Source: Nitrospiraceae bacterium (lineage in GTDB: Bacteria > Nitrospirota > Nitrospiria > Nitrospirales > Nitrospiraceae). From it: DNA of 64,000 nt. Shown piece by piece: positions 1 through 62,240 of this stretch. The position numbers and the translations under genes are program-made. Where the stretch lies: contig JBFWWG010000005.1 of NCBI GenBank assembly GCA_050246315.1, positions 64,001 to 128,000 on the forward strand, given 5' to 3'. The notes beneath the pieces are model-generated. The model was not told the origin of the DNA. It did no database searches and saw only the letters and a program-made list of their open reading frames with translations. Position 1 is the first letter of the stretch. Each line of letters starts with the position of its first letter.

Positions 1-278
1 GGCCGCGATGTTGGCGCCAGTAGTTCTTGCTCCATCTCTGCGCGAGCTACCCTCTCCAGGGCCGCTTGAATCGACCACCCATCCCGCCGCGAGTCACTGA
101 TCCTGCGAGAATGATTTTCGTACCTCGGTCACTTATGACCTCATCGCTCAGCCAACGACTCCAACTCTCCACCTGGGAAAATACGGGTATTTCCGCTCGC
201 GAGTAGATTGACAGGCTCCTGACTAGGAAGTAGCCTGTCACCATTCCGCGCCAGAAATCTAAGGCTCCACTTGTCAAA

Positions 279-3167
279 ATGTTGCCCGCGAAGACGCAGC
301 CGAAGTTCCTTCTCTTTCTGAGCCATGCCGGCACAGATACGGACGCGGCCCGGACCCTCAAGAAGCGTATCGAGGCGGCGCCGGCCGCGATCGAGGCTGG
401 TCTCAAGGTGTGGTTCGATAAGGATGATCTGCAACCTGGACAGGAATGGCAAGTGCAGCTTGAAGAGACCATCGAGAAGCGTGCGACCGCCTTCGCGGTC
501 TATGTCGGGTCGCGTGGGCTGGTGAATTGGGTTGAGCAGGAAGTACGGCTGGCCGTATCGCGGGCGACGACGAGCGGTGGTCAATTCCCATTCATCCCGA
601 TCCTTGCGGCGCAAGCAGAGGCGTCTGCTGCGCTGCCTGGCTTTGTTCGACAGTTCCAGGGCGTGCGTGATGTCGAGAACCGTTCGGATGAGTTTCAAAA
701 GCTGCTGGCCGCAGTAGTAGGAAGAGCCGGGGCAGGCAACCTCCAAGTAGAAGCTGAGCCGTTCTTCGGCTTGAACGCCATCGATGAAACGCGCAATCAC
801 CTGTTCTTCGGTCGTGAAAAGGCTACTCAGGAGTTGCTTGCGCGGCTCCGAAAGGGACGCCTCGTGATGGTGACGGGCGATAGCGGGTGCGGCAAGTCCT
901 CATTGGTCCGCGCCGGCTTGGTTCCCCGCTGGCGTGGCGGGGCGTTGGCTGAACAAGAAGGTCGTCGCCCGGATGGAGAGAGTTGGCATGTGGTCGGAAT
1001 GCGCCCCACCGCGAATCCTCGTCGCGCGCTTGGCGATGCGGTATTCAGCGCCGCTTCACAGCTGGGGTGCAGCGCCGAGGATCGTGGGATCTATAAGGCA
1101 TGGGCCATGGGTGATGACCCAGAGAAGCGACGGGATGGTCTGCGGTGCGGCCTCGACGCACGCACCACCCGCACCTTGCTCATCGTGGACCAGTTCGAGG
1201 AGCTCTTCACACTGACCCCCGCGGTGCAACGGGCGTCATTTGTGACGCTGCTGCTCGATCTTGCAGATCCGTTGGATCGTCGCTTCGCGGTGGTGCTGAC
1301 GATGCGGCGGGACTACTACAATCTGTGCTCGGAATTTCCGGGGCTCTACAACACTCTCGAGGCTGATGACCGGGCAGCCCGCTACCTGCTCGATCGGATG
1401 CAACCCGAAGAGTTGCATCGTGCCGTCACCGAGCCGCTGAAGCTTGCCGGCGTCGTGGAGGGGGACCGCGAGGCGCTGGCGAAGAGCGTGCTGCAGGACG
1501 TCGGCGACCGAGCTGGCGATCTTGCACTCGTGGAGTTCGCGTTAACCGAAGCATGGCGGCGACGAGGAGAATACGGGGATGATTTACTGCGTGCCTATAC
1601 CGCGGTGGGGCGTGTGGAAGGCGCGCTCGCGAGGGCCGCTGAGCGGGTGTACCTCGAGGAGCTTGGCGGTGAGGCGCATGACGACGTGATCCAAGCGGCC
1701 TTCATCAGGTTAGTGCGGCTGGGTGATACCGGCGGGGCGACACGGCGTGTGGCTCGGCGCGGTGAGTTCGATGACGGGCGATGGGTCTTGCTCCAGATGT
1801 TGGCCAGTGAGAAGGGCAATCGTCTCGTCTTAATCAGCGGGGGCGAAAACGCGGAGGCCGCCGAAATTGCGCATGAGGCGCTGGTCACGCAGTGGCCACG
1901 GTTTCAACGGTGGCTACAAGACTCGGCGCCCGAAAAGCGCACCTTGGACGCACTGATCGAACGAGCAGCAGGATGGAGCAAGGTGGCTGACGGCAACGAG
2001 AAGAGCGGCTGGCTTGCAGCAGGCGTCGAACGGGAGACGTTCGCGCAGCTCTTGAAGAACCATCGAGGATGGCTTTCTCCCACTGAATGTACGTTTGTCG
2101 ATGCAAGCATTGAAGCGGAAGTCAAGCGCGTTCAGCGGGAACAAGAGATCCAGCGACAAGAACTCCTCCAGGCAAGGCGGCTGGCGGAGGAAGCGGCCAA
2201 GCGGGAAGAAGCGGAACGGGCGCGGGCTGCCGCGGCAGAACAGGCACGCCAGGCGGCAGAGAAGGCGCGGCAAGCGGAGCAAGCCAGAGCGCAAGAAGCG
2301 GAGCGGGCACGTGAAGCAGCGCAGCGAGCTCAGCGACGACAATGGTACCTCAATCTGGCGCTCCTGATCCTCTTTCTCGGGTCCGGGTTGGTTATGTGGC
2401 TGTGGAAGGAGGGAGTGAACGTTCAATATGCCGGATCGATTGCGCTGGCTCGGTTGCATCTTGTGCAGGTCTCTGAACCGGAGATGGTCGAGATTCCAGG
2501 AGGAACGTATCGGCCAGGCGAGGTCCGCAATCCGGCTGAGGGTGAGAAATCGTCGCCAGTCACCGTCAAGAACTTCAAGATCGGCAAGTATGAAGTGACG
2601 TTTCACGAGTATGACCGGTATGTGGCCTTGACTGGTGGTCGACTCCCAAACGATGAAGGCTGGGGTCGTGACAGACGACCTGTGATCAACGTCTCGTGGG
2701 AGGACGCGACGGCCTATGCGAAGTGGCTGTCGGAAGCGACCGGTAAGCGCTATCGCTTGCCGACGGCAGCGGAGTGGGAATATGCCGCTCGGAGCATAGC
2801 CAAGGGCAAGGACGACATCTGGGCGGGGACATCCAAGGAGGCGCAACTGAAAGAGTATGCGGTGTACGAGGCACAACGCACGGAGCCGGTTGGGAGCAAG
2901 GAGGCCAACAGTCTCGGCCTGTATGACATGAGCGGCAATGTCTGGGAGTGGGTTGAGGACTGCTGGCATGAGAATTATCAAGGAGCGCCGACGGATGGCT
3001 CCGCTTGGCTCGAAGCAGGCGGTGCGGATTGCGGCCGGCGCGTGCGCCGGGGCGGGTCCTGGAACAGCGAACCGGGGACCCTGCGTGCATCGTACCGGTA
3101 CGGGGGCGACCCGGTGTACCGGAACTTCGACATCGGCTTCCGTCTGGTCCAGGACATTTCCGAATAA
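279..3167 (+). CDS. DGR target: TIR domain + nSTAND1-like P-loop NTPase + coiled coil + TM helix + FGE-sulfatase (CLec-fold) domain
   Basis: N-terminal TIR motifs FLSHAGTD, VWFDKDDL, WVEQE; PFFGL..FFGRE; Walker A GDSGCGKSS; Walker B LLIVDQFEE; AHEAL; Ala/Glu/Arg-rich coil; hydrophobic WYLNLALLILFLGSGLVMWLW; FGE motifs RLPTAAEWEYAAR, GLYDMSGNVWEW, RGGSW...GFRL. Confidence 0.92.
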   Translation: MLPAKTQPKFLLFLSHAGTDTDAARTLKKRIEAAPAAIEAGLKVWFDKDDLQPGQEWQVQLEETIEKRATAFAVYVGSRGLVNWVEQEVRLAVSRATTSGGQFPFIPILAAQAEASAALPGFVRQFQGVRDVENRSDEFQKLLAAVVGRAGAGNLQVEAEPFFGLNAIDETRNHLFFGREKATQELLARLRKGRLVMVTGDSGCGKSSLVRAGLVPRWRGGALAEQEGRRPDGESWHVVGMRPTANPRRALGDAVFSAASQLGCSAEDRGIYKAWAMGDDPEKRRDGLRCGLDARTTRTLLIVDQFEELFTLTPAVQRASFVTLLLDLADPLDRRFAVVLTMRRDYYNLCSEFPGLYNTLEADDRAARYLLDRMQPEELHRAVTEPLKLAGVVEGDREALAKSVLQDVGDRAGDLALVEFALTEAWRRRGEYGDDLLRAYTAVGRVEGALARAAERVYLEELGGEAHDDVIQAAFIRLVRLGDTGGATRRVARRGEFDDGRWVLLQMLASEKGNRLVLISGGENAEAAEIAHEALVTQWPRFQRWLQDSAPEKRTLDALIERAAGWSKVADGNEKSGWLAAGVERETFAQLLKNHRGWLSPTECTFVDASIEAEVKRVQREQEIQRQELLQARRLAEEAAKREEAERARAAAAEQARQAAEKARQAEQARAQEAERAREAAQRAQRRQWYLNLALLILFLGSGLVMWLWKEGVNVQYAGSIALARLHLVQVSEPEMVEIPGGTYRPGEVRNPAEGEKSSPVTVKNFKIGKYEVTFHEYDRYVALTGGRLPNDEGWGRDRRPVINVSWEDATAYAKWLSEATGKRYRLPTAAEWEYAARSIAKGKDDIWAGTSKEAQLKEYAVYEAQRTEPVGSKEANSLGLYDMSGNVWEWVEDCWHENYQGAPTDGSAWLEAGGADCGRRVRRGGSWNSEPGTLRASYRYGGDPVYRNFDIGFRLVQDISE
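3033..3152 (+). repeat. DGR variable repeat (VR)
   Basis: Gap-free 120-nt alignment to 4719-4838; 18 mismatches at TR adenines, 8 elsewhere; lies at the 3' end of the target CDS. Confidence 0.93.
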
Positions 3168-3202
3168 CCCTTTGTCCTTTGTCCTTTGACCCTTTACCCT
3201 TC
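3168..3202 (+). repeat. Pyrimidine-rich ~7-mer tandem array directly after the target stop codon
   Basis: ccctttg tcctttg tcctttg acccttt acccttc. Confidence 0.8.
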
Positions 3203-3224
3203 CGAAATAGCTCTTCCGAAACAC

Positions 3225-3261
3225 CCGGCCCTCGCCCGATGTCGAATCGGGCGAGGGCCGG
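3225..3261. promoter_or_regulatory. Perfect 16-bp hairpin downstream of VR; putative DGR target-recognition cruciform
   Basis: ccggccctcgcccgat-gtcga-atcgggcgagggccgg; no U-tract follows. Confidence 0.8.
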
Positions 3262-3295
3262 CTCAGAGAATTCTGATAGCTCAGGTTGATGACAC

Positions 3296-3652
3296 ATGAC
3301 GACCAGCCTTCCCCAGGCGGTGCAATCCTGTCACGAGTTACTGCTCTGGCTGATACCCCAGCTCGACAAGTTCCCGCACTCGCGCCGGTTCACTCTGGGC
3401 GAGCGATTGGAAGCCGGACTCCTGACGGTCTTGGAGCTGTTGGTCGAGGCGGCCTATACCCACAATAAAGCGGTTTTCCTGCACCGCGCGAACCTGCGAT
3501 TGGAGGTCGTCCGCCACCTGTGGCGGCTGGCGCATGAACTCAAAGTGATGGCGACCCGGCAGTACGAGCATGGCGCGAAGCTGATCGATGGCCTTGGGCG
3601 GCAGATCGGTGGCTGGCTCCGCAGCCAGCCGCCGCCGGAGCCGCGCTCATGA
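3296..3652 (+). CDS. avd: DGR accessory variability determinant (Avd, four-helix bundle)
   Basis: 118 aa with KFPHSRRFTLGERL and GRQIGGWLRS motifs typical of Avd; stop overlaps the RT start (ATGA). Confidence 0.92.
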   Translation: MTTSLPQAVQSCHELLLWLIPQLDKFPHSRRFTLGERLEAGLLTVLELLVEAAYTHNKAVFLHRANLRLEVVRHLWRLAHELKVMATRQYEHGAKLIDGLGRQIGGWLRSQPPPEPRS

Positions 3653-4731
3653 CCAGACTCGATGACATGTGGCTGCGAGTCGTGAGTTTCGAGAACCTGC
3701 TCGCCGCCTATCGGAAGGCGCGGCGGGGCAAAGGTAGCAATCGGCCCGTTGCCGAGTTCGGCCTGCACCTCGAACGCGAGCTGTTCCTGCTCCAGCGCGA
3801 GCTTGAAGACGGCACCTATCGACCTGGAGCCTATCGCCTGTTCACAATCTACGAGCGCAAGCCGCGCGTCATCGCCGCGGCGCCGTTCCGCGACCGAGTC
3901 GTGCACCATGCGATCATGAACGTGATCGAATCGCCGATCGACCGGACATTCATTGCCGACTCCTACGCCTGCCGGCCGGGCAAGGGGGTCCATGCGGCGG
4001 TGGATCGCTATCAAGCCTGGGCGCAAACGTATCGCTATGTCTTGAAAATGGACGTGCGCCACTACTTCCTCTCCATCGACCACGAGTTGCTCAAGGCGAA
4101 GCTCCGGCGACGGATCACTGACTGCCGCACGCTGGACTTGTTGGATCGCATTATCGAGAGCTCTCCGAGCGGAGAGTCAGGCCCCCGCTACTTTCCCGGT
4201 GACGATCTCTTCACCCCGTTGGAACGGCGTGCGGGCATTCCCGTCGGCAACCTGACGAGTCAGTTCTTCGCCAATCTCTATCTCGACGATCTGGATCACC
4301 ACATGAAGCAGGTCCTGCGGGTCCGGCCGTACCTCCGCTACGTGGACGATATGGTAGTGCTGGACCATGACAAAGCCAGGCTGGCCGACGTTCGCGAGGC
4401 TATCCGTGAGCGGCTTGCGGCCGACCGACTCAGGCTTCATCCTGACAAGGCGCATGTGACGCGAACGGCCGACGGACTGAACCTTCTCGGCTATGTGGTC
4501 TATCCGGGTCGGCGGCGATTGCGAAACGATAACGGTCACCGCTTTGCTCGCAAGCTCCGAGCGATGGCGCAGGCCTATCGATCGGGGCGTCTGGAATGGG
4601 CTAAGGTTGTGGCCTCGACGCAAAGTTGGGTCGGCCACGCTCAGCATGCGGATACGGAGGGGCTGCGCCGAGCCATCTTCTCCCAGGCTGTGTTTGCAAG
4701 GGGAACAGGCCACAAGACGGCCAGCGTGTGA
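3649..4731 (+). CDS. DGR reverse transcriptase
   Basis: [26 protein letters not shown]-type [17 protein letters not shown], catalytic LRYVDD; 360 aa, no maturase or endonuclease domain. Confidence 0.95.
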
Positions 4732-4838
4732 TCCGGGGCGGGGCCTGGAACAACAAACCGGAGAACCTGCGTGCTTCAAACCGGAACAGGAACAACCCGG
4801 ATAACCGGAACAACAACATTGGTTTCCGTCTCGTCCAG
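4719..4838 (+). ncRNA. DGR template repeat (TR)
   Basis: AAC-rich copy of VR (11 AAC codons, 33 adenines in 120 nt); overlaps the last 13 nt of RT. Confidence 0.92.
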
Positions 4839-5011
4839 TCCGCCCGCACGGTACGCGACAGCGTGCCGGCCCGGAGCCGGACGGTCCACGGACCGGCCGG
4901 GTGAGGCAGCGGGTGTCCATGAGCCCGTTTCCCGGCCTCCCGCTGACGCGGTAACGCCAAAGAGAGGGCCTGGGGTGAGGCGATCGTGGCCGGTCGGCTA
5001 GGCCGCCGGCC
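4839..5011 (+). ncRNA. Structured spacer 3' of TR; putative part of the DGR RNA
   Basis: Stem-loops at 4877-4900 (cggtc-cacg-gaccg inside ccgg/ccgg) and 4988-5011 (ggccgg-t-cggc-tag-gccg-ccggcc). Confidence 0.5.
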
Positions 5012-5384
5012 CCGCCGCTGCGCTGCTGGGAGTGCTGACTGCTGTGATGAACCAACCGTGATGAATCATGGGGGTAGCCTTCGTCATTCGTCAAGGGTCG
5101 CACGTGGAAGAGCGTTGAGGTCTCTCCGCATCGGTACGTGTTTCGATTGACGATTGGCGCATGTCGCAGGCCGGGCTCCGCTCCCAATATTTTGGGAGGG
5201 TCCCAATAATTTAGGAATCCCTTCGTCTCCTCCGCTCTGTATCTCGCCCCGACCTCCAAGCCGAAGTCCTTCAATCCGCGCGTACTTAGACAGTTCCAGA
5301 TCGATTCACCGACCTGTGGCATTGCGGTTGCTGTATCCCCCTGCGTCACGAGGATCGGCGAAGCATCTGGCGGTTGACAGGGCG

Positions 5385-5666
5385 ATGTTCAGAATCACAA
5401 GCAAGACGACAGACCGGAGGGCGCTGGTGGTCCTCGAAGGAAGGCTGGTTGGCGAATGGGTTCAGGTGCTCAACGAGGAGTGCACGGCGCTGATGAAGAC
5501 GGGACGGGCGCTCTCCCTGAATCTCTCGGACTTAGCGTTTGCGGATCAAGACGGAATCGAACTCTTGAGACAACTCGACCGACTCAACGTGCCATTCATT
5601 CAGTGCCCGGCATTCATCGCGGCACTCTGTAAAACGAAGGGGGACGGCCATGCTCACGCTCATTAA
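5385..5666 (+). CDS. STAS-domain / anti-sigma-antagonist-like protein
   Basis: VVLEGRLVGEW...LNLSDLAFADQDG; ATG at 5385 in frame with ORF 5154-5666. Confidence 0.7.
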   Translation: MFRITSKTTDRRALVVLEGRLVGEWVQVLNEECTALMKTGRALSLNLSDLAFADQDGIELLRQLDRLNVPFIQCPAFIAALCKTKGDGHAHAH

Positions 5667-6462
5667 GGAAACGGCGGCTCAAGGTTTTGGATACGCGGTG
5701 GAGAGGAAGGCAAGTACGCCGGAACGTTCTCCGAAAAGCCGGACGAATTATCCGGACGACTCCGGCCCCGCTTCCTCGCACGGCTTGCCGGAAGAGTGGG
5801 AACTGGTCTCGGCCTTGGCCGCCGGTGAAGAGGCCGCTTTCGCAAAGCTCGTCCATCAATACCAGAAGCCCTTGTTTCGCCAGGCCTTGGCCTATGTGTC
5901 GAGCGAAGCGGTAGCCGAAGAGGTCGTCCAGGAGACCTGGCTCGCGGTCATGGACAGCATCAAGCGATTTGAAGGCCGGTCCTCGTTCAAGACCTGGCTC
6001 TATCAGATTTTGATCCACAAGGCCAAATCGGCGGGCGTCAAGGAATCTCGCCAGATCCCGTTCTCCGCGATGGCCGATCAGGATGAGGAGTCGGACGGAA
6101 TGCCCTCCGAAGCACGGGGAAGCGAGGCCGTCGCTCGCGAGGCCGGCGGTTCCTGGACGATGGGCGTGGCGGACGAGGACACACCAGAGGATCAAATGTT
6201 GGCCGAGGAGTGCCGCCGTGAGATCACGCGGGCCATGAGGGCCTTGCCGACTGTCCAGCGACGGGTGATGGAACTCTATCATTTTGAGGAATTGACGTCC
6301 GAAGAAGTCTGCCGGCGACTGAAGATCAGCGAAAGCAATAAGCACGTGTTGCTGCATCGAGGCAAGAATCAGGTCAAGAAAGCCGTGGACGGGTACTTTG
6401 CGGGAGACCGATGTCGTCACAATACCGTCCGGCAAGTTTACAGGCTGGGGTTGGCGGCCTAG
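5650..6462 (+). CDS. ECF sigma-70 factor
   Basis: AEEVVQETWL, FEGRSSFKTWLYQI, region-4 HTH (LPTVQRRV...VLLHRGK). Confidence 0.88.
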   Translation: MLTLIKETAAQGFGYAVERKASTPERSPKSRTNYPDDSGPASSHGLPEEWELVSALAAGEEAAFAKLVHQYQKPLFRQALAYVSSEAVAEEVVQETWLAVMDSIKRFEGRSSFKTWLYQILIHKAKSAGVKESRQIPFSAMADQDEESDGMPSEARGSEAVAREAGGSWTMGVADEDTPEDQMLAEECRREITRAMRALPTVQRRVMELYHFEELTSEEVCRRLKISESNKHVLLHRGKNQVKKAVDGYFAGDRCRHNTVRQVYRLGLAA

Positions 6463-61353: not shown

Positions 61354-61400
61354 TCCAGGGGGAATAAGCGGGAAGGTCTATCATCTTGATAGGTAGAGCG

Positions 61401-62240
61401 ATGACGCCAAATCTGGGTCCGATATGGAGCACGGTCGTGGCGCTGGCGCTGCTGGTCGTTGTGATTATGGCCGCGTCGGCCGAGGCGCAGCTCGATCGGC
61501 TACGGAAGTTCCGGTCCGAGCCGGGACCGACGCAGCCTCTGGATCAGCCGATGGTCACGATCCAGGCCGGCTCCTTTTGGATGGGGCGAGACGGAACAGA
61601 AGCGTTGGAGGACGAGCGGCCTCGGCACGAAGTCTGGCTCGACGAGTTCTCGATCGACTTGCATGAGGTCACCACGGAAGGCTATGCACGGTTTCTTGCG
61701 GACACACAACGGCAATCCCCGGCGTTTTGGGAGCAGGTGAATCTGGTGCAGCACGGCACGAGACCGGTTGTGGGCGTCTCCTGGGAGGATGCCGCCGCCT
61801 ACTGTGCATGGCGAGGGGCGCGGTTGCCGACGGAGGCCGAGTGGGAAAAGGCTGCGAGAGGGACGGACGAACGCCGCTACCCATGGGGCAATCAGAAGCC
61901 GACTTCGGATCTGGCCAATTTTGCGCTCGGCGCCCGCTTCAGTTACGAGCAGGTCTTGCTCCCGGTCGGTCAGTTTCCGAAAGGGAAGAGTCCCTACGGT
62001 GTGCAGGACATGGCGGGAAACGTGTGGGAATGGGTCTCCGATTGGTATGTAGGGAACTATTATGAAGTGAGTCCCGCGAGGAATCCGCAGGGACCCGACC
62101 AGGGACAGTTCAAAGGGCTGCGCGGAGGGTCCTGGTCCGATCTGCCGAAGTATCTGCTGACGTACGGCCGATTCAAACTGTTGCCCACCACTCGCAACAG
62201 TTTCACCGGATTTCGTTGCGCGAAATCCACCGCGCCGTAA
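61401..62240 (+). CDS. Secreted FGE-sulfatase (SUMF1-like) protein
   Basis: Signal peptide; RLPTEAEWEKAARG, DMAGNVWEW, RGGSW..GFRC. Confidence 0.9.
   Translation: MTPNLGPIWSTVVALALLVVVIMAASAEAQLDRLRKFRSEPGPTQPLDQPMVTIQAGSFWMGRDGTEALEDERPRHEVWLDEFSIDLHEVTTEGYARFLADTQRQSPAFWEQVNLVQHGTRPVVGVSWEDAAAYCAWRGARLPTEAEWEKAARGTDERRYPWGNQKPTSDLANFALGARFSYEQVLLPVGQFPKGKSPYGVQDMAGNVWEWVSDWYVGNYYEVSPARNPQGPDQGQFKGLRGGSWSDLPKYLLTYGRFKLLPTTRNSFTGFRCAKSTAP

Follow-up and report, generated by a model that had tools for sequence, protein, structure and literature searches.

The stretch of DNA analysed here, called hereafter the window, comprises 64,000 nt of a Nitrospiraceae bacterium (GCA_050246315.1, contig JBFWWG010000005.1, positions 64,001-128,000, forward strand), whose genome, G000, is a metagenome-derived assembly of 30 contigs. 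At positions 279-5011 of its plus strand lies a diversity-generating retroelement (DGR), adjoining the gene of a predicted membrane receptor made of a TIR domain, a STAND NTPase and a C-terminal FGE-sulfatase domain. In DGRs, a reverse transcriptase (RT) acting with Avd copies the RNA of a template repeat (TR) into adenine-mutagenised cDNA, which replaces a variable repeat (VR). We found that the VR of this locus, VR1, was rewritten in nature, between strains, at TR-adenine sites only. The present VR1 allele was not, however, templated by the TR of the window, TR1, which fits perfectly a remote VR on another contig, C4, of the same genome. The locus is one node of a network of two cassettes and multiple receptors, and not a closed cis unit. 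The element is very probably a bona fide chromosomal DGR of a cellular lineage that diversifies sensors of STAND-NTPase conflict systems, in a Nitrospirota host and by the mechanism just outlined.

The genes and repeats follow each other in the order target, VR, hairpin, avd, RT, TR, and all frames are open. The initial annotation had described a complete chromosomal DGR adjoining a membrane TIR-STAND gene, with the VR in the C-terminal FGE domain, and every element was indeed found at its place. The features, with the basis of each assignment, are:

279..3167, plus strand: target gene, 962 aa, with the order TIR, nSTAND1, coiled coil, transmembrane (TM) helix, FGE/C-type lectin (CLec) domain (open frame; Pfam)
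315..707, plus strand: TIR domain, residues 13-143 (Pfam TIR_2)
759..1982, plus strand: nSTAND1 NTPase, residues 161-568 (Pfam PF20703)
2127-2339, plus strand: coiled-coil-like segment, residues 617-687 (composition)
2343..2405, plus strand: predicted single TM helix, residues 689-709 (Kyte-Doolittle scan)
2475..3149, plus strand: FGE-sulfatase / C-type-lectin-fold sensor domain, residues 733-957 (Pfam, PDB, AlphaFold/Foldseek)
3032..3152, plus strand: variable repeat VR1, residues 919-958 (repeat; substitution pattern relative to TR; strain differences)
3225-3240 / 3246-3261, plus strand: perfect 16-bp GC-rich hairpin with a 5-nt loop (inverted-repeat search)
3296..3652, plus strand: avd, 118 aa (NCBIfam DivGenRetAVD; Pfam bAvd; PHROG 3206)
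3649..4731, plus strand: DGR reverse transcriptase, 360 aa (8ub7_A match; tree; motifs)
4718..4838, plus strand: template repeat TR1 (repeat; match to the remote C4 VR)
4839..5022, plus strand: conserved structured RNA domain 3' of TR (20-locus alignment; RNAalifold)
4877-4900, plus strand: stem-loop with a 10-bp stem and CACG tetraloop (covariation)
5082..5166, plus strand: right 85-nt direct repeat of the island (repeat search)
-282..-199, outside the window, G000:C5:63718-63801: left copy of the 85-nt direct repeat (repeat search)

The start of the RT gene overlaps the avd stop by 4 nt, VR1 ends 15 nt before the target stop codon, and the first 14 nt of TR1 overlap the 3' end of the RT gene.

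VR1 and TR1 form a direct repeat of 121 nt (3032-3152 and 4718-4838) sharing 79% identity. Among the TR1 adenines 18 of 33 were changed in VR1, versus 8 of 88 non-adenines (six at T, one at G, one at C), and this adenine bias was significant as determined by a one-sided Fisher test (p = 4e-7). Over the 120 nt aligned in the initial annotation the count of 18/33 was reproduced, as was that of 8/87 for non-adenines. Read in the frame of VR, nearly all TR1 adenines (31/33) occupy the first or second codon position, 11 codons being AAC, and complete adenine randomisation of TR1 would recode 19 codons, giving about 2e18 proteins.

To follow VR1 in nature, contigs from public sequencing runs were compared with the window. 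The stretch is contained in 20 runs from nine studies, and 12 of these runs, from six studies, hold 0.74-0.75 of its words. The comparison spanned positions 1-5400 and drew on Logan contigs of three DNA runs, each of a different study (X3, X5 and X8), and of one RNA-library run (X15). The X3, X5 and X8 contigs cover 1-3207 and show 18 differences each, all of them within 3066-3130. All 18 sit at TR1-adenine sites, each in codon position 1 or 2, and the chance of such a placement is (33/121)^18 = 7e-11. Outside VR, the target gene had no difference in contigs of the other studies, one contig (70-2430) included. At the protein level the alternative allele, P0002, is identical at 949 of 962 residues, and its 13 changes all lie in residues 930-951. 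A third allele was found in X15, with 23 differences, eight of which could be read, all at TR-A sites; contigs of this run cover 424-4077 and parts beyond, and DNA carry-over is possible, so that they are no proof of transcription. The polymorphism at TR-adenine positions that the initial annotation had proposed to look for was thus observed, in contigs, for 18 of 18 inter-strain differences. An exact 28-nt anchor taken upstream of VR1 retrieved one locus from metagenome contigs (L065), which is 77% identical and represents a relative and not a strain. One contig present in X5 and X8 joins a TR-like sequence to the 3' end of VR1; it was considered as a retrohoming intermediate and rejected, as it matches a TR-like remnant on contig C14.

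The eight non-adenine mismatches between TR1 and VR1 show that the rule of cognate pairs, identity at non-adenines, fails for these adjacent repeats, and the initial annotation, which had taken the window TR as the template of the neighbouring VR, has to be corrected on this point. Eight is high for this RT family: 30 related loci had 0-7 such mismatches, mostly 0-3. Five of the eight are internal and three are 3'-terminal, within the last 23 nt; the latter could be the distinction between IMH and IMH* (IMH, initiation of mutagenic homing). All eight are constant among strains, and five are synonymous third-position changes. Such a pattern would be expected of two TR-VR systems that diverged under coding constraint, rather than of an untranslated TR that decayed at random. 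Mismatches 3089 and 3116 lie within the span that was rewritten between strains.

The contigs of the same genome were then searched for copies of TR and VR, and perfect partners were found in trans. TR1 and the VR on C4 (C4:22137..22024) differ at 14 of 32 adenines and at 0 of 82 non-adenines, whereas TR1 and the VR on C18 differ at 15/32 adenines and 4/83 non-adenines. The C4 target (G000:C4:22009-24618, L010) is a TIR-nSTAND1-TM-FGE protein of 869 aa; of a cassette of its own, only an RT fragment of 82 nt is left. A second complete DGR is present on the minus strand of contig C3 (G000:C3:244824-249286, L009), with a SIR2_2 gene, a target, avd, RT and a template, TR2. Its SIR2_2 gene (295 aa, ThsA-like with 80.7 bits in PADLOC) overlaps the gene of an nSTAND1-TM-FGE target (639 aa), and its avd and RT share 83% and 79% amino-acid identity with their window counterparts. 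TR2 matches its own VR2 (17/32 adenines and 0/89 non-adenines changed) and equally the remote VR of C14a (18/32 and 0/89).

The C14a target (G000:C14:41773-43185, L012), a TIR-TM-FGE protein of 470 aa in which Ala replaces the conserved Glu of the TIR domain, has no avd or RT, but downstream of it are a TR-like remnant containing 28 adenines and the 3' RNA domain. The C18 target (G000:C18:27817-30534, L011) is a DUF4062-nSTAND1-FGE protein lacking a TM helix. On C14 there is also a degenerate TIR-FGE gene (C14b, G000:C14:18766-20001, L013), whose VR has decayed and whose avd survives as a remnant of 31 aa. Two cassettes serve a family of at least six FGE targets in this genome, and the window element is one of the two and not a lone system.

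The comparison between strains also revealed an exchange of the cassette itself. In the common strain represented in these runs, the window sequence is kept up to 3207 apart from VR. The following segment, 3208-3294, which includes the hairpin, is replaced by 48 other letters, and 3295-4766 shows 73 differences along with 16 gap letters, among them an insertion of 12 nt at 4173. Identity resumes at 5151-5298. The diverged tract (about 3208-5150) is thus module-sized, with about 5% divergence between strains whose target gene is identical, which argues that the avd-RT-TR cassette was exchanged by recombination. The RT of the common strain (P0006, 364 aa) is 93% identical to that of the window and ends in TASA instead of TASV. 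This change, GTG to GCG, places a C at TR position 10, the base carried by VR1 at 3041, and speaks for the common-strain TR being the probable cognate of VR1 and for the window cassette having been swapped in. A search of the genus for a closer cassette gave none above 86% identity among four species genomes.

Two other explanations of the mismatch between TR1 and VR1 were considered. First, the mosaic identity and the mismatch might be an assembly artefact that joined the target of one strain to the cassette of another. The genome is metagenome-derived and in 30 contigs, and the identity break falls exactly at the repeated hairpin region common to three loci. Nevertheless, two presumed source runs contain 0.99 of 484 sampled 31-mers of 279-5011, words across both junctions included, and RT fragments of the window type (P0004 and P0005) are present on contigs of other NCBI assemblies. 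These two observations speak against a chimera, as does the fit of TR1 to the C4 VR of the same genome, and we consider an artefact improbable.

Second, the locus might be decoupled and frozen, VR1 being the relic of an earlier TR, and the window cassette serving only the C4 receptor or none. This finds some basis in the eight mismatches at 88 non-adenines, three of them in the last 23 nt, where homing starts, when the C4 VR has 0/82 and related DGRs of the RT family mostly 0-3; moreover one VR1 allele was unchanged across three studies. However, VR1 varies only at TR-adenine sites between otherwise identical strains, and was thus rewritten very recently, as measured against the about 2.8 kb of the gene around it, which show 0 substitutions. 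Non-adenine mismatches by themselves are no bar to homing, and all frames and RNA elements are intact. A frozen locus is accordingly conceivable, though we doubt it, and we prefer a bona fide DGR whose cassette has been exchanged.

The nature of the RT and of Avd was established by several comparisons. The avd product matches NCBIfam DivGenRetAVD (NF033474) with 95.4 bits for a cut-off of 80, Pfam bAvd with 60.8 bits, and PHROG 3206, 'Avd protein of DGR'. The RT matches Pfam RVT_1 and contains the motifs GNLTSQ and YVDD. Its best solved relative is 8ub7_A (3.3e-48, 168 bits), to which two of its stretches, of 18 and 11 residues, align; the best group II RT structure gave 6.8e-20 and 75 bits, and a retron-type RT 42 bits. 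Three stretches of 8ub7_A occur verbatim in the genome of Bordetella phage BMP-1, beside the annotated VR1 of that phage, which identifies the chain as a BPP-1-type bRT.

A maximum likelihood tree of 29 rows was built, with four annotated group II ltrA proteins and without retron or abortive infection (Abi) rows. Of the other 25 rows, 21 were RTs of related loci, 20 of these loci having an A-biased TR/VR pair; the remaining four were the window RT, the C3 RT, the BMP-1 brt and an Acaryochloris RT that adjoins an annotated avd. The four ltrA proteins were split from these 25 rows at 100/100, and the window RT belongs to a seven-member clade of Nitrospirota (100/99). As the initial annotation had expected, it thus groups with known DGR RTs.

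An RT of a group II intron, a retron or an Abi/DRT system (DRT, defence-associated RT), with a fortuitous repeat, would be suggested by the best NCBIfam model, group_II_RT_mat with 141 bits, which ranks first because the library has no DGR-RT model, and by several phage records that label homologues 'retron-type'. But the RT missed the NCBIfam cut-offs of these families (group_II_RT_mat 141.2 versus 300, retron St85 57.1 versus 235, AbiA 23.9 versus 250), it scored below every cut-off of the DRT-family models, no maturase was found, and Rfam gave 0 matches to an intron or retron RNA at the locus. Together with the bRT as best solved match, the split from ltrA, the presence of Avd, the A-specific TR/VR pair and the natural A-site variation, this makes such an origin hardly credible. 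The genome has two RVT_1 genes only, both of them DGR RTs.

Conserved RNA and DNA elements were found around the repeats. A stretch of about 190 nt located 3' of TR (4839-5022) is conserved: aligned across 20 loci of several phyla, it has 25 invariant columns. RNAalifold predicted 31 pairs on this alignment, 18 of them with compensatory changes, and up to nine double changes per pair were counted in a stem at alignment columns 74-97. Support is strongest for a 10-bp stem that covaries and is closed by a tetraloop of the YAYG/YAAG type (4877-4900). In the available part of their preprint, Handa et al. (bioRxiv 10.1101/2023.10.23.563531) report an Avd-binding stem-loop just downstream of TR in 207 of 278 Avd-type DGRs; the stem-loop at 4877-4900 fits this description and is a candidate for such a binding site. 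The 3' RNA domain matches no Rfam family.

The hairpin at 3225-3261 begins 73 nt past VR1. An identical 16-bp stem is found 60-73 nt past the VRs on C3 and C4, and none at C14a, whose VR fits TR2 perfectly, or at C14b. In the strain of runs X5, X8 and X15, the 48 other letters stand in place of the hairpin region. Candidate roles for the hairpin are target recognition, a recombination breakpoint or mRNA stability. A classic intrinsic terminator was rejected, for no T-run follows the stem, and a promoter and terminator scan of 1-5700 gave no plus-strand matches. Two side observations concern this region: the loop of the C3 hairpin is the reverse complement of the window loop, as if the hairpin were inverted, and the segment from the target stop to the hairpin (3168-3224) is C/T-rich with repeated CCTTTG(T/A) units.

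In the target receptor, the TIR_2, nSTAND1 and FGE-sulfatase matches all exceed the curated Pfam cut-offs. The TIR_2 match has 52.6 bits (cut-off 28). Glu88, a candidate for the catalytic TIR glutamate, lies four residues past Trp84, is conserved in all but one of the 11 TIRs aligned from the receptor family, and aligns to NWTEYE (WxxxE) of the TIR chain 7uxr_A in a weak match (E = 0.11). The nSTAND1 match (PF20703; 4e-89, 300.3 bits for a cut-off of 27.1) has intact Walker A (GDSGCGKS, 200-207) and Walker B (LLIVDQFEE, 300-308) motifs in the translation. Between the STAND and FGE domains lies the TM segment, with a Kyte-Doolittle peak of 2.04 over 19 residues, the sole such peak in the protein. 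It is preceded by RAQRRQ, and the positive-inside rule predicts a cytoplasmic TIR-STAND part and a periplasmic FGE domain.

The FGE-sulfatase domain itself (residues 733-957, Pfam 1.5e-51, 176 bits) has support from sequence and structure. By sequence, the C-terminal 238 residues retrieved PvdO (9e-38) from the PDB and, over the VR-bearing half, TvpA of Treponema (2y3c, 2e-19). An AlphaFold model of the domain made with 25 homologues had a pLDDT of 82.9, and Foldseek matched it to PvdO (TMq 0.80), formylglycine-generating enzymes and, at rank 5, TvpA (TMq 0.72). As side observations, the segment directly before the TM helix (residues 617-687, about 70 residues) is rich in Glu, Ala, Arg and Gln and is lacking in the 869-aa C4 paralogue; its DNA (2127-2339) has a raised read depth in run X3, probably owing to low complexity.

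On this architecture, a course of events can be proposed. TR and the 3' structured RNA would be transcribed, and RT-Avd would bind the stem-loop just 3' of TR and copy TR into cDNA with misincorporation opposite adenines. The cDNA would replace a VR, recoding up to 19 codons at the C-terminal ligand-binding face of the FGE/C-type-lectin domain. A ligand bound outside the cell would then be signalled through the TM helix and coiled coil to NTP-dependent oligomerisation of nSTAND1 inside, and TIR, once activated, would cleave NAD+ or signal, leading to growth arrest or death of the sensing cell. An immune function of the receptor is what we infer from these parts.

Instead of being an anti-phage sensor, the receptor could serve an aggregate-forming bacterium in signalling or in kin or self recognition; TIR would then signal or act as a scaffold, and diversification would be regulatory tuning. 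In PADLOC, no defence model covers the protein as a whole, the predicted periplasmic side of the sensor is one on which ligands from other cells or the environment occur, and the neighbours are regulators (a sigma-54 activator and an extracytoplasmic function (ECF) sigma factor). Regulatory tuning is also what PMC7517822, in the portion available, proposes for cyanobacterial DGR targets. On the other hand, the paralogous targets join the same sensor to SIR2 (ThsA-like), TIR or DUF4062, and relatives use caspase, a repertoire typical of abortive-infection effectors; the conserved TIR Glu88 suggests an enzyme. We therefore regard a non-defence role as rather unlikely and favour a conflict-system sensor.

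Several points weigh against the reading of the locus as an active DGR that diversifies an immune receptor. Regarding diversification, the assembled genome of the window gives no evidence that TR1 ever wrote VR1, and the view of the common-strain TR as the cognate of VR1 draws on one of the eight mismatch sites, position 10. The evidence for variation consists of consensus contigs, in which no within-sample heterogeneity was seen. P0002 derives from these same Logan contigs and is hence not independent, and the A-specificity of the X15 allele is read from 8 of its 23 differences. As one alternative allele is common to X3, X5 and X8, diversification is not so fast that every population differs. 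Regarding the RT, the tree has no retron or Abi outgroup, these families being judged by the failed NCBIfam cut-offs. As to the receptor, the TM helix and its orientation are deduced from hydropathy and charge, and similarity to a solved TIR is weak (E = 0.11). PADLOC gave no system-level match for the target, its best matches being to TIR-only models with at most 29 bits, and no Avs or bNACHT model matched. NADase activity, NTPase switching, ligand binding and the immune role are all putative.

The DGR resides on a distinct island. A unit of 5.3 kb (window -199..5082) is bounded by the 85-nt direct repeats, which are 83.5% identical, occur in only these two copies in the genome, and each have an internal inverted repeat; the island contains target, avd, RT and TR only. 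In two congeners, G002 and G003, the genes that flank the island are separated by just one copy of the repeat, and no DGR is present there, the G002 flanks being 97% and 93% identical, while a third, G001, has a DGR at the same site with 77% identity. The whole unit behaves as an insertion/deletion island. Neither a tRNA nor an Rfam match (E <= 0.1) was found at its borders, so that nothing points to an att site of the tRNA type or to a catalogued RNA. A joint from 5163 to 1 in X5 and X8, considered as a circle junction, is explained by the left 85-nt repeat upstream of the window.

No phage gene was found among 35 flanking open reading frames (window and 8 kb upstream), in agreement with the initial annotation; these are housekeeping or regulatory genes. 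The upstream neighbour encodes a GAF-sigma54 activator and the downstream neighbour (5650-6462) an ECF-type sigma-70 factor (Sigma70_r2/r4_2). Further downstream are genes for a dehydrogenase, cytochrome bd, HMG-CoA reductase, an Lhr helicase and others. Another FGE-sulfatase-domain protein of 284 aa is encoded at 61386-62240 (Pfam 1.9e-57), with no TR-like match.

The window RT was used to retrieve 50 related loci, 30 of which had an A-biased TR/VR pair. The nearest RTs, with 71-80% amino-acid identity, belong to metagenome-assembled genomes of Nitrospirales and Nitrospiraceae, followed by those of Methylococcales, other Gammaproteobacteria and Thiomargarita; Competibacteraceae are also among the relatives. 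In the loci closest to the window RT, TR lies just past RT and VR about 1.6-1.8 kb upstream. Architectures were scanned in 20 VR-bearing proteins of related loci. Four were TIR-nSTAND1-FGE, so that the window architecture is recurrent. DUF4062-nSTAND1-FGE, nSTAND1-FGE, TIR-FGE and caspase-FGE were found in 3/20 each, DUF4062-NACHT-FGE and AAA_35-FGE in 1/20 each, and FGE only in 2/20.

In a wider interpretation, the unit made of hairpin, avd, RT, TR and RNA domain might be an exchangeable module that is re-assigned among receptors and here, brought by recombination beside the TIR-STAND receptor, programmes the remote C4 target. Two cassettes would then supply four or more live sensors coupled to TIR, SIR2 or DUF4062 effectors. 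Those sensors that have a TM anchor would read extracytoplasmic antigens, for example phage particles whose genome has yet to enter, and would signal through the membrane to a STAND-TIR death switch, the whole making up a combinatorial, somatically diversifying surface repertoire in a nitrifier microcolony. We put this forward as a tentative proposal that is less likely than not. If the periplasmic topology and TIR activation are true, this compact five-part system of about 5.3 kb could test the idea of an anticipatory, extracellular-facing bacterial receptor repertoire. Its value is that of a test case, the concept itself being already published.

Among known systems, the DGR of phages BPP-1 and BMP-1 (mtd-avd-TR-brt) is one point of reference for the cassette. 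Shared with it are Avd, a homologous RT (35.8% identity, tblastn) with the same motifs, adenine-specific mutagenesis concentrated on AAC codons, a VR at the 3' end of a CLec-fold target, and a structured RNA beside TR, which RT-Avd needs. The BPP-1 element is phage-borne, acts on a tail-fibre receptor-binding protein, and has TR between avd and brt and a hairpin close to the VR end. In contrast, the element described here is chromosomal, has the order target-avd-RT-TR, acts on an FGE-type domain of a signalling receptor, and has its hairpin 73 nt past VR. The FGE-type C-type-lectin domain is shared with the DGR variable protein TvpA of Treponema denticola, but TvpA is a stand-alone lipoprotein, whereas the window protein carries this domain as the sensor part of a TIR-STAND receptor. 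The organisation into N-terminal effector (TIR), central STAND NTPase and C-terminal sensor is that of antiviral STAND NTPases (Avs / bNACHT) and of TIR-STAND proteins. Their sensors are germline-encoded repeat or other domains located in the cytoplasm, whereas the present sensor is somatically rewritten by a retroelement and predicted to be extracytoplasmic.

The closest published cases are cellular DGRs. In the available text, Kaur et al. 2020 (PMC7159879) connect NTPase conflict systems with FGS domains that DGRs diversify, and thereby predicted such STAND-NTPase antigen sensors. Doré et al. 2024 (PMC10907252, likewise in its available parts) describe clade 5 DGRs in aggregate-forming bacteria, with several loci per genome, nSTAND1/NACHT-CLec targets, some with TIR, periplasmic CLec domains, trans targets that match TR at all non-A sites, natural diversification, and an 'antigen sensor / adaptive immunity' hypothesis. 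As far as these texts go, DGR-diversified STAND/TIR sensors, trans targets, periplasmic CLec domains and an adaptive-like reading are thus already published. A full-text literature search gave no paper on such a system in Nitrospira, and the DiGReF survey only lists Nitrospirae, with 0.6% of its DGR hits.

The present locus resembles DGR 1/3/6 of Thiohalocapsa PB-PSB1 and clade 5D, as presented in the available text of PMC10907252, in its C-terminal FGE/CLec VR, central nSTAND1 and N-terminal effector, a likeness of target architecture. As described there for clade 5, there are several DGR loci per genome, incomplete loci, remote VRs that fit in trans, a CLec domain placed in the periplasm by a TM helix, VR variation in natural populations and aggregate-forming hosts. 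The present host differs, being a Nitrospirota, a phylum that the main text of PMC10907252, in the parts available, names only within a cited title. Differences also lie in the pairing, the cis VR failing to match a TR to which a remote VR conforms, in the exchange of cassettes between strains with identical targets, and in an island bounded by 85-nt repeats and not associated with transposases. A well-resolved natural case from Nitrospirota, in landfill, wastewater and bioreactor samples, is thereby added to the DGR-diversified STAND/TIR sensors, and it shows that TR-VR pairing is fluid, with a mismatched cis pair, a perfect trans pair and a cassette exchanged between strains. The mismatch in cis with a perfect fit in trans, the cassette exchange and the repeat-bounded island are what this locus brings in addition to the systems already known.

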